Notes under the pieces: generated by a model
Told to the model about the DNA's origin: nothing
The model's database searches: none
What the model saw: only the letters and a program-made list of their open reading frames with translations
Program-made: the position numbers and the translations under genes
In this document: positions 9,489-61,588 of the stretch, in pieces
Numbering within the stretch: the stretch's first letter is position 1
Layout: each line of letters starts with the position of its first letter
Sequence record: PP777464.1
Origin: Escherichia phage fEgEco12
Direction: 5' to 3' (one strand)
Length of the DNA: 64,000 bases

Positions 9489-9605
9489 AAAAAGTGGTTG
9501 ACTCCGGTCAGCCATTTTGCTATTATATATTCATTGAGAGATAGCTCACTAGCCCACAGGGTGCATAAGTGTATCTATTATATAAGTATTGAGTACTGAA
9601 AACTA
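9489..9605 (+). repeat. Conserved intergenic module, copy 1 of 4
   Basis: TTGACTCCGGTCAG..TATTAT promoter inside near-palindrome, then box TAGCCCACAGGGTGCATAAGTGTATC; copies near 13487, 16755, 19507. Confidence 0.6.
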
Positions 9606-9698: not shown

Positions 9699-10040
9699 AT
9701 GACTATCTCAATTGCTCAATCTAACTTTGAAAATGAAATCATCGCCCAGGCACTGCGTTTAAATGATGGTCGGGCCGAAATTAATTACGGTTTCAATTCA
9801 GGCGGTTGTGAAAAATATCAGTACTTTGTAACGGCTGATGGCGGTGTCCTGGGTATCAATACAGTTATTGTAAACATACAGAAAATTAATTTCAATGATC
9901 CAGACGATAGCCAGTTTTACATCACTGGCGTAGACGTGAACTATGAGGATGACTCACTAACTGATGATCACACTGGCGAGCGGTTAGAAAGTGCATACGG
10001 TGAAGATGATTATCAGTCCGGTCCAGAAGATTTCGAATAA
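9699..10040 (+). CDS. hypothetical protein, acidic C-terminus (113 aa)
   Basis: ORF track; promoter, hairpin GGGGAAACGGTTTCCCC, RBS AAGGAA. Confidence 0.65.
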   Translation: MTISIAQSNFENEIIAQALRLNDGRAEINYGFNSGGCEKYQYFVTADGGVLGINTVIVNIQKINFNDPDDSQFYITGVDVNYEDDSLTDDHTGERLESAYGEDDYQSGPEDFE

Positions 10041-10432: not shown

Positions 10433-10612
10433 ATGGCTATCATCGCAAAAACTGAAATCGTTGGTCTGGATTCTATCATCATGACGTTTGAAGATCAAAA
10501 AGGTATGTATGTAGTTTCATATGGTGATTATGTTCGGGAGTATGAAACGGTAGACGAAGCCTTTGAAAGTTATATTCGCCAGGTGAATAAAGCATACGAC
10601 GACTACCGCTAA
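10433..10612 (+). CDS. small hypothetical protein (59 aa)
   Basis: Below track cutoff; subtype-2 promoter, RBS AAGGAA. Confidence 0.55.
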   Translation: MAIIAKTEIVGLDSIIMTFEDQKGMYVVSYGDYVREYETVDEAFESYIRQVNKAYDDYR

Positions 10613-11149: not shown

Positions 11150-11244
11150 TCTATTGACAATATCCTCCAGTACTGGCATAATACTTACATCAAGACGAGA
11201 ACGTCACTAACCCATAGGGTGCACAAATGTAACTATATAATATC

Positions 11245-11315
11245 GATCAATAAATGATCAAAAAAGTACTGGATCAATTTAGCATAAGGCGTATAATTCT
11301 GATCAATTCTTGATC
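11245..11315. promoter_or_regulatory. Cluster of five GATC sites in (T)GATCAA context around a promoter
   Basis: GATC at 11245, 11256, 11272, 11301, 11312 within 71 bp. Confidence 0.6.
11270..11297 (+). promoter_or_regulatory. Promoter with GATC-containing degenerate -35
   Basis: Consensus -35 replaced by TGGATC; -10 TATAAT; two GATC just downstream. Confidence 0.5.
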
Positions 11316-11478
11316 AAAGGCAATATACGCAGTTGAATTTATATAGACAGTACAAAGGCGTTACTATTCGTGGTAATGCTGGTGGATATGTAGTATCATA
11401 TGGTTTGAATAAGATAAACACTAGTAGTATTATTGTAGCATTACAGTACTATAGTATTTTTATAATGAGGTTAAAATA

Positions 11479-11736
11479 ATGGCAGTAGGATACGCGAAAG
11501 ACGGGGCCGAACAAGACGAGATTCATGCAGTGATTCAGGCCGCCGTTAACCACGCTAGAAAGCAAATTAACGCACAAAGAGAATCACTTGTACATTGCCT
11601 CGACTGCGGCGATAAAATCCCTGAGAATCGACGCCAGGCCGTTATAGGGTGCATGTATTGTATTACTTGCCAGGAGGATCATGATAGTACTTTTAAAAGA
11701 GATCCGCGTAATTGTTGGCATAGATCTATGAGATAA
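11479..11736 (+). CDS. TraR/DksA-family C4 zinc-finger protein
   Basis: CLDCGDKIPENRRQAVIGCMYCITCQ = C-x2-C-x17-C-x2-C spacing typical of TraR/DksA. Confidence 0.7.
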   Translation: MAVGYAKDGAEQDEIHAVIQAAVNHARKQINAQRESLVHCLDCGDKIPENRRQAVIGCMYCITCQEDHDSTFKRDPRNCWHRSMR

Positions 11737-13486: not shown

Positions 13487-13600
13487 AAAAAGGGATTGAC
13501 TCCGGTCAGTCCCTTTGCTATTATATACGCATAGAAACAAATTAGCCCACAGGGTGCATAAATGTATCTATTGTTTGCTGGTGGCTAGTACTGAAAACTA
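13487..13600 (+). repeat. Conserved intergenic module, copy 2
   Basis: Same TTGACTCCGGTCAG promoter and TAGCCCACAGGGTGCATAAATGTATC box; includes Chi at 13577. Confidence 0.6.
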
Positions 13601-56262: not shown

Positions 56263-56304
56263 TATATGTGCACATGGAGTGCCTTTGAAGATCAAGGATA
56301 GATC

Positions 56305-61063: not shown

Positions 61064-61588
61064 ATGTCGAAGAAGGATGCTTCGAAGAAAAAACAATCAG
61101 TACATTTCAGTACTGGGAAAGATAACTGGACTACTCCAAAGGATTTCTTTGAAGATTTGGATGAACTCTGGGGATTTACACTAGATGCAGCATGTGTTAA
61201 AGAAACAGCATTGTGTGATAATTTCTTTACACCAGAAGACAATTCACTTGAACAGGACTGGGGAAACAATATCGTGTGGCTCAACCCACCGTACAGTGAT
61301 TTGAAAACGTGGTTATCTAAGGCAGTTGATGCATATAACAAAGGTGCTACAGTACTGATTCTCGTACCATCAAGAACTGATACTATAGCCTTTCAGGATT
61401 ATGCTGCGAAAGTTTGTGATTGTATTTGTTTTATAAAAGGTCGCTTAAAGTTCGGTATCCCTGAAGAACCAGATAAAAAGACTGACAGTGCTCCATTCCC
61501 TAGTTGTTTAATAGTACTGGATAAGTATTTGACTCCAGCTAAAATCAACCATCTTAAATCTATTGGTCAGGTGATGAAGAACATATGA
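61064..61588 (+). CDS. DNA N6-adenine methyltransferase (phage Dam family)
   Basis: N-terminal DNWTTPKDFF and catalytic NPPYS motifs. Confidence 0.75.
   Translation: MSKKDASKKKQSVHFSTGKDNWTTPKDFFEDLDELWGFTLDAACVKETALCDNFFTPEDNSLEQDWGNNIVWLNPPYSDLKTWLSKAVDAYNKGATVLILVPSRTDTIAFQDYAAKVCDCICFIKGRLKFGIPEEPDKKTDSAPFPSCLIVLDKYLTPAKINHLKSIGQVMKNI

Follow-up and report, generated by a model that had tools for sequence, protein, structure and literature searches.

The 64,000-nucleotide stretch of DNA analysed here (the window) belongs to an Asteriusvirus (121Q/PBECO4-like) jumbo phage of E. coli, a virulent phage with a genome of ~350 kb, and between positions 10000 and 13000 it shares 92–98% identity with the Asteriusvirus jumbo phages 121Q, PBECO4, Ecwhy_1 and JNE01. 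In vB_Ec-M-J the homologous stretch falls within an annotated 21.5-kb direct terminal repeat, the right end of which corresponds to approximately position 20,990 of the window, placing the array of GATC sites that is the subject of this report in the middle of the repeat, ~12 kb from its annotated left end and ~9.7 kb from its right boundary. The terminal-repeat part of the window is densely populated by small early genes on the plus strand, almost all of which have a consensus sigma-70 promoter (TTGACA-16-TATAAT) in front of them. Whole-genome comparisons were made with the complete assembled genome of Ecwhy_1 (354,537 bp), which is 100% identical to the window at the array locus and carries its terminase genes at 88.5–90.2 kb, ~200 kb from this locus. 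Three types of the locus were compared, represented by the window, 121Q, Turkey3 and others (type A), by PBECO4, BF17, E9.1 and others (type B, 79% identity), and by two metagenome contigs (type C). A search of IMG/VR for further homologues of the locus returned 121Q alone and a metagenome scan returned the two type C contigs, so that comparative depth is limited to these three types.

The array occupies a 330-bp intergenic region containing two promoters. Promoter P1 (11154–11182, plus strand) is near-consensus, with a TTGACA hexamer, a 17-nt spacer and a TG-CATAAT element, and is both stronger than promoter P2 and located 110 bp upstream of it. It forms part of a repeated module, in which a strong promoter with an extended -10 precedes a conserved leader containing the hairpin TAACCCAYAGGGTGCA; the window holds six copies. 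Downstream of each plus-strand copy (11150–11240, 9492–9580, 13490–13575 and 16755–16840), at a distance of ~100–200 bp, come a further promoter and a gene, and the minus-strand copies (3325–3240 and 4880–4795) are oriented against the gene direction. At the array locus the leader hairpin (ACCCATAGGGT, 11210–11220, plus strand) is conserved, and invariant in A1. No terminator is predicted between P1 and P2, and read-through from P1 could therefore express the downstream operon whatever P2 does.

P2 is a secondary sigma-70 (host-type) early promoter. Its -10 hexamer TATAAT (11292–11297, plus strand), invariant in all six aligned phages, lies 36 nt upstream of the start of the next small ORF, as at neighbouring promoter–gene pairs, and its position predicts a transcription start near 11304. 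Three sister modules have, ~100 bp after P1, the sequence AAAAAAGTAC-TTGCAW-N16-TATAAT with a gene beyond it. The corresponding sequence of P2 is AAAAAAGTAC-TGGATC-N16-TATAAT, in which TGGATC (11270–11275) aligns with the TTGCAW -35 of the sister promoters found after 9489, 13478 and 16740, the family -35 having been swapped for a GATC-bearing hexamer. P2 stands alone in its family in having a GATC hexamer as its -35 and GATCAA repeats in place of the upstream spacer, and the other five P1 modules of the window are devoid of GATC repeats. Since both the -35 and the upstream spacer are replaced by GATC sequences, an earlier note on this DNA was right in placing the array on a promoter, with one GATC substituting for the consensus -35 box, two sites upstream of it and two just downstream of the -10.

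Two other features of these early promoters were observed in passing. Hairpins at 9491–9518 and 13489–13516 possess a 12-bp stem (AAAGGGATTGACTCCGGTCAGTCCCTTT) holding the -35 of the next promoter, and were scored as terminator-like. The tetranucleotide GTAC is over-represented throughout the window (O/E 1.35–1.53), and AGTACT, which recurs in the promoter spacers of the early region and just upstream of -35 hexamers (11168–11173, 11265–11270, 11446–11451), may be a regulatory motif.

The first gene downstream of P2 is a 48-aa ORF homologous to 121Q gp293 (11333–11479, plus strand; TTG start, GTG in type B), the stop codon of which overlaps the ATG of the following gene (TAATG). In type B this ORF is still open although its nucleotides have diverged by 35%; its codon changes comprise 8 that are synonymous and 19 that are mostly conservative. 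The ORF is probably real. The second gene (11479–11736, plus strand) encodes a TraR/DksA C4 zinc-finger protein (PF01258, E = 3.7e-9), annotated as DksA-like in relatives. The earlier note had described the array promoter as lying upstream of the TraR-like gene, and P2 does precede this gene, but the first gene is the 48-aa ORF and the stronger P1 is found further upstream. The TraR-like protein is 65–72% identical to its counterparts in the T4-like phages Klebsiella F48, Shigella SP18 and Enterobacter MY742, which suggests that the gene has been exchanged between jumbo and T4-like phages. A tie between the array and the TraR gene itself was rejected, as these closest non-Asteriusvirus homologues have no upstream GATC cluster, and the array thus belongs to the promoter and not to the gene. 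A G-YVVSYG motif is common to the 48-aa ORF and a 59-aa ORF nearby (10433–10612), and the two may constitute a small paralogous family.

Within this setting GATC occurs at 11245, 11256, 11272, 11301 and 11312, exactly as listed in the earlier note, and the (T)GATCAA context given there is borne out in that all five sites read GATCAA in a single orientation on the plus strand. Their contexts are, in order, C-GATCAA, T-GATCAA, G-GATCAA, T-GATCAA and T-GATCAA, with TGATCA in three of the five, and their start-to-start gaps are 11, 16, 29 and 11 bp. Relative to the predicted start of P2, site 1 (11245–11250) lies at about -59 and site 2 (11256–11261), 11 bp further on, at about -48, and the cores of both are retained in types A, B and C. 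Site 3 (11272–11277), at about -32, occupies the -35 position of P2 (TGGATC, or TTGATC in type B). Site 4 (11301–11306), at about -3, and site 5 (11312–11317), a TTGATCAA palindrome 11 bp away at about +9, are present in type A only, site 4 being replaced in types B and C by TATGCAG.

Such a cluster is not expected by chance. The expected number of GATC sites per 71 bp is 0.30 at local density (87 sites in window positions 1–20650), 0.17 at that of the window and 0.12 at that of the genome, so that the figure of ~0.3 in the earlier note is the local value. Under random placement the probability of at least five GATC in 71 bp is 0.013 in the GATC-rich terminal-repeat part and 0.004 in the window, and of 1000 dinucleotide-preserving shuffles none packed five GATC into 71 bp or five GATCAA into 73 bp. 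GATCAA is found 19 times on the plus strand of the whole window, and along the 354,537 bp of Ecwhy_1 the array is the sole cluster with at least four GATC per 75 bp.

Comparison of the locus types indicates which parts of the array have been maintained. All five sites are present in type A. Type B has kept GATC at sites 1–3 and is missing sites 4–5; the flank of its site 2 has become GATCTG, and an extra GATCAA (2b) located 5 bp downstream creates a second 11-bp pair (2b–3). Type C, with three sites, is a recombinant of a type A upstream half and a type B downstream half, with the breakpoint at site 3. Between types A and B there are no changes in the 12 GATC-core positions of sites 1–3 or the six positions of TATAAT, as opposed to 15 changes in 46 neighbouring positions (33%, P about 0.009). 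In the stretch that precedes 11236, types A and B differ at only 5 of 136 positions, and the divergent block thus begins at the array. It is therefore established that the array exists, that it is unique in the genome, that it is located on a promoter, and that its upstream core is conserved.

These comparisons also bear on a neutral origin, in which local 11-bp duplications in a fast-evolving and recombining spacer gave rise to an array that was then kept by chance or by hitch-hiking. The units of the array do resemble duplicates of each other (CGATCAATAAA and TGATCAAAAAA, CTGATCAATTC and TTGATCAAAGG), site number varies between close relatives (5, 4 or 3) with a recombination breakpoint inside the array, and the terminal repeat as a whole is not depleted in GATC (O/E 0.92). 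Drift alone is nonetheless an improbable explanation, since the GATC cores are unchanged amid neighbouring bases of which a third differ, type B has independently gained a GATC that makes another 11-bp pair, a functional -35 has been replaced by the array while the -10 was kept, and shuffled sequences failed to produce such a cluster. We conclude that the array is a genuine cis-element under selection, carried by an early promoter of atypical form.

The wider distribution of GATC places this element against an unusual background. Ecwhy_1 contains 596 GATC sites against 1279 expected (O/E 0.47), making GATC its most depleted tetranucleotide apart from GCGC. In the window this depletion changes stepwise, from the O/E of 0.92 quoted above for the terminal repeat (1–20990) to 0.43 in the unique region (20991–64000), and the step coincides with the end of the terminal repeat annotated in vB_Ec-M-J. 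GCGC is a separate case, absent from both the 64-kb window (51 expected) and the 354.5 kb of Ecwhy_1 (187 expected), an avoidance far exceeding that of any other tetranucleotide. Across the genome, 11 GATC gaps measure 10–13 bp where 3.9 would be expected (P = 0.002), and five of the 11 are intergenic. Among the other intergenic pairs, only that at Ecwhy_1 227818/227829 offers independent support. This pair, located outside the window, has an 11-bp spacing (GGATCAATTTTTGATCAAT, 227818–227833), lies upstream of the homologue of 121Q gp467 flanked by a terminator and a conserved TAAATACCC motif, and in three 81%-identical variants has kept both cores with variable flanks. One of three other intergenic pairs was discarded as incidental, being formed by a stop codon and a terminator stem, and is not conserved. 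In the window, an 11-bp pair at 56290–56304 falls in the RBS of a gene (GAAGATCAAGGATAGATCATG) and is conserved along with its surroundings in phAPEC6 and ph0011; since this RBS is conserved as a whole, its GATC pair is uninformative. An intergenic gap of Ecwhy_1, again outside the window, also contains a perfect 24-bp palindrome, AAAAATTGATCTAGATCAATTTTT (346352–346375).

A serious rival to any role for methylation is an operator, in which a sequence-specific protein of phage or host origin recognises (T)GATCAA(W) units, binds cooperatively one turn apart, represses or activates P2 and perhaps blocks read-through from P1, the Dam sites being incidental or modulatory. Across the locus types the 3' AA is found in 8/9 sites and the 5' T in 7/9, with one orientation throughout, and this retention of AA together with uniform orientation suggests that the recognised unit may exceed GATC. 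The positions of the sites (-59/-48, -35, -3/+9) are classical ones for an operator, the second Ecwhy_1 locus contains a related sequence (the GGATCAATTTTTGATCAAT mentioned above), and 11-bp repeat arrays flanking or preceding promoters are common in viral contigs. Iterons of 11 bp are known from R1 parC/ParR, and arrays of this kind are typical of ribbon-helix-helix operators. The present array resembles R1 parC in its direct repeats of 11-bp period on both sides of a promoter core, but differs from it in comprising two phased pairs and a single site instead of two regular sets of five. A ParR–parC-type iteron array was rejected on account of the irregular gaps (11, 16, 29, 11) and the lack of an adjacent ParR- or ParM-like gene.

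A candidate binder is missing from the neighbourhood, as none of the 12 neighbouring small ORFs (10 small early proteins, the 48-aa ORF and the upstream ORF) contains a DNA-binding Pfam domain. The second locus at Ecwhy_1 227818 varies its flanks and keeps its GATC cores, and the motif is not enriched elsewhere, with 56 + 66 hexamers in 354 kb forming just one other phased pair. Any protein reading GATC would, moreover, meet methylated DNA in a Dam+ host. On this evidence an operator is a tangible possibility, though we would not expect it to be the correct explanation.

Known systems in which GATC sites are read offer a second line of comparison. SeqA in vivo prefers adjacent GATC sites ~10 or 20 bp apart (PMC2912659; structure in PMC2691817), represses dnaAp2 at hemimethylated sites and also acts at lambda promoters (PMC2912659). 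The geometry at P2 is of this Dam/SeqA type, with five GATC between about -59 and +12 that overlap core promoter elements and include pairs 11 bp apart. As at the SeqA-sequestered promoters of E. coli (dnaAp2, the oriC region), several GATC sites lie within a few helical turns on promoter elements, and the 11-bp pairs fit the helical-turn spacing favoured by SeqA (PMC2912659, PMC2691817). Unlike dnaAp2 and oriC, the locus is without DnaA boxes and displays a constant GATCAA flank in a single orientation. Its between-pair gaps (16 and 29 bp) are out of helical register. The arrangement known to make a poor Dam substrate, A4-GATC (PMC4417163), is not present in the array.

The closest precedent is the core promoter of P22 gtr, a phase-variable promoter under Dam and OxyR control (Broadbent et al. 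2010, PMC2909390), in which a 45-bp core with TCGATCAA at -35/-33 is less active in a dam mutant (PMC2909390). Both are phage-borne sigma-70 promoters with paired GATC sites and TTGATC/GATCAA flanks, and in both a GATC falls within the -35 hexamer and AA comes next, the hexamer being TCGATC in gtr, where GATC begins at -33, and TGGATC or TTGATC here, where GATC is at about -32. The pairs of gtr are, however, inverted, 13 bp apart and contained within OxyR half-sites, whereas those of the array are direct and 11 bp apart; and P22 is a temperate phage with a phase-varying gtr, whereas P2 is an early promoter of a virulent jumbo phage. A Dam + OxyR switch like those of Mu mom, agn43 and P22 gtr, in which OxyR half-sites overlap the GATC sites and neighbouring half-sites make up a tetramer site, was rejected, as the best four-element score at the locus (9/16) was reached by 426 of 500 shuffles (85%). 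A scan of the array for the OxyR half-site (ATAGnTnnnAnCTAT) likewise gave a best score of 8/10, reached by 164 of 1000 shuffles and lacking a partner. The controls for these scans were P22 gtr, with scores of 10/10, 8/10 and 8/10, and Mu mom, with 11/16 against the OxyR consensus. Mu mom is itself a phage promoter with upstream GATC sites, in this case three within ~35 bp, in a (C/A)GATCG context and with gaps of 18 and 13 bp.

An RNA element in the P1 leader was likewise discarded, with folding z-scores of -1.5 and -1.8 and no structure shared between types A and B, the predicted pairing simply reflecting the palindromic GAUC. The P1-module leader has no match in Rfam, and the array locus corresponds to no Rfam family and no tRNA. 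The characterisation of the array in the earlier note as the hallmark of a hemimethylation-sensitive promoter stands in part. The sites are non-random and located on a promoter, the cores of sites 1–3 are conserved, and both the SeqA-like 11-bp pairs and the gtr-like -35 are in its favour, but the AA flank hints at a longer unit.

The same note had invoked the pac site of phage P1, which consists of seven TGATCA/G hexamers in two groups within 161 bp (PMC10028697) and functions under methylation control (PMC10028697, PMC12707154). Repeated GATC hexamers are common to both elements, three of the five here being TGATCA, but pac lies inside pacA at the start of packaging and the array lies mid-repeat, far from the terminase genes. 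The analogy fails on this position and on the absence of the downstream pair from two of the three locus types, and a P1-type pac site was rejected because neither paired groups conserved as a unit nor a location at an end or at terminase genes was found. A replication origin was similarly rejected, as the intergenic region contains no DnaA boxes and the neighbouring ORFs have no replication domains. More generally, the array might be a site of DNA transactions, either part of an origin (an unwinding or iteron region fired by promoter P1) or a pac-like terminase site. Its AT-rich 11-mers, each starting with GATC and located downstream of a strong promoter, invite comparison with the 13-mers of oriC and the GATC repeats of phage P1 oriR, in addition to the hexamers of pac, and GATC arrays in other viral contigs are found by terminase genes or in a replication-organizer-like gene. 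We nevertheless regard this as very improbable, given that no initiator gene is adjacent, the locus is distant from both ends of the repeat, types B and C have lost the downstream arm, and the other five P1 modules have no GATC repeats. Both the DNA-transaction and the neutral explanations are less likely than an operator or a methylation-sensitive promoter.

The arrays of other viral contigs deserve a brief description of their own. Pattern scans of IMG/VR yielded many GATC-bearing 11-bp arrays of heterogeneous nature, including collagen-like coding repeats, replication-gene iterons and near-terminase arrays; being heterogeneous and chosen by the pattern itself, they identify no common reader. 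One contig of 61% G+C (L106, IMGVR_UViG_3300010370_004989) has ten GATC in 110 bp (2815–2925), arranged in five repeats of TTGATCAAAAAATGATCAGA with GATATAAT at the end. They are flanked on one side by ORFs of small-terminase-like and nuclease-like type and on the other by HNH and large-terminase genes, and this array could be a packaging or regulatory site. In another (L119, 3772–3808; also L085, L056 and L033), four 11-bp repeats of TGATCAATCAN lie inside a replication-organizer-like ORF and may be origin iterons with Dam sites.

Of the potential trans-acting factors, the phage itself encodes one candidate. As the earlier note had stated, an ORF at 61064–61588 (plus strand) specifies a 'Dam'-family N6-adenine methyltransferase, matching PF05869 with E = 6.3e-33 and 114 bits (cut-off 28.1) and carrying the catalytic (D/N)PPY motif as NPPY in its translation. 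It shares family membership with the VT-2/Stx-phage, T1 and HP1 Dam enzymes, but its identity to the Dam-type proteins of Stx phages is only ~30%, and to T1 Dam 32%; outside the jumbo phages, its closest relatives come from phages of Staphylococcus and Lactococcus. Dam-like enzymes of phages differ in specificity, some being specific for GATC and others almost non-specific (PMC7556043). The further step taken in the note, of linking the array to a Dam of the genome's own, is weakened, as the link consists solely of the Pfam assignment, at 30–32% identity to the Stx-phage and T1 enzymes. The strong depletion of GATC in the sequence beyond the terminal repeat (O/E 0.43) gives no hint of a protective GATC methylase. 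In T1, the single phage taken as a control for whether phages with a Dam of their own avoid GATC, the O/E is 0.78. The methyltransferase is a possible trans factor of the array, and the proposed involvement of methylation is in any case independent of it, since host Dam would methylate the sites anyway.

With a Dam site in every repeat and E. coli as the host, the array is most likely read through its methylation state, and judging from its sequence and comparative features P2 is a good candidate for control by DNA methylation. The explanation we favour, while holding it at somewhat less than even confidence, is that the array renders P2 sensitive to methylation state, through SeqA or by a direct effect at the -35. 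The GATCAA array would then be a selected cis-regulatory element built into P2, the promoter of a two-gene operon for the 48-aa protein and the TraR/DksA-like regulator of RNA polymerase. Injected DNA would be fully methylated, and newly replicated copies hemimethylated or unmethylated. SeqA could bind hemimethylated pairs one helical turn apart (1–2 and 4–5, or 2b–3 in type B) and occlude the promoter, and a methyl group on the adenine of the -35 hexamer at site 3 could directly alter recognition by RNA polymerase, as at the P22 gtr core promoter. The two read-outs are not mutually exclusive, and either one would make the activity of P2 dependent on the state of its template, in replication or in methylation. 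Methylation of the sites, the identity of the reader and the direction of the effect are what we infer from this arrangement. Several observations count against it. Readers of GATC alone, such as Dam and SeqA, need no AA flank, so that the AA at 8/9 sites and the single orientation hint at a longer recognition motif, and to these are added the read-through from P1, the dispensability of sites 4–5 in types B and C, and the between-pair gaps.

A stronger version of the methylation-sensitive promoter, which we consider speculative and rather unlikely, would make the array an epigenetic timer that couples this virulent jumbo phage's P2 to replication. GATC would have been purged from the unique region and one dense, phased array kept on the promoter of the TraR-like gene, P2 would fire from one template state only (parental and fully methylated, or new, hemimethylated and SeqA-bound), and the PF05869 methyltransferase of the phage would reset the switch.

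E. coli and temperate phages (Mu mom, P22 gtr, P1) provide well-established examples of Dam-dependent promoter control. To our knowledge no such control has been reported in jumbo lytic phages, the early gene regulation of which is almost unexplored, and a literature search on Asteriusvirus promoters found nothing. The array adds to the known GATC-clustered promoters in this unexplored setting, and its natural variants with 5, 4 and 3 sites, together with a single 100-bp fragment, make the system simple to test. Depletion of GATC only outside the terminal repeat and the absence of GCGC also bear on how these phages cope with host systems linked to methylation. If control by methylation is true, expression of a modulator of the host RNA polymerase would be coupled to the state of phage genome replication.
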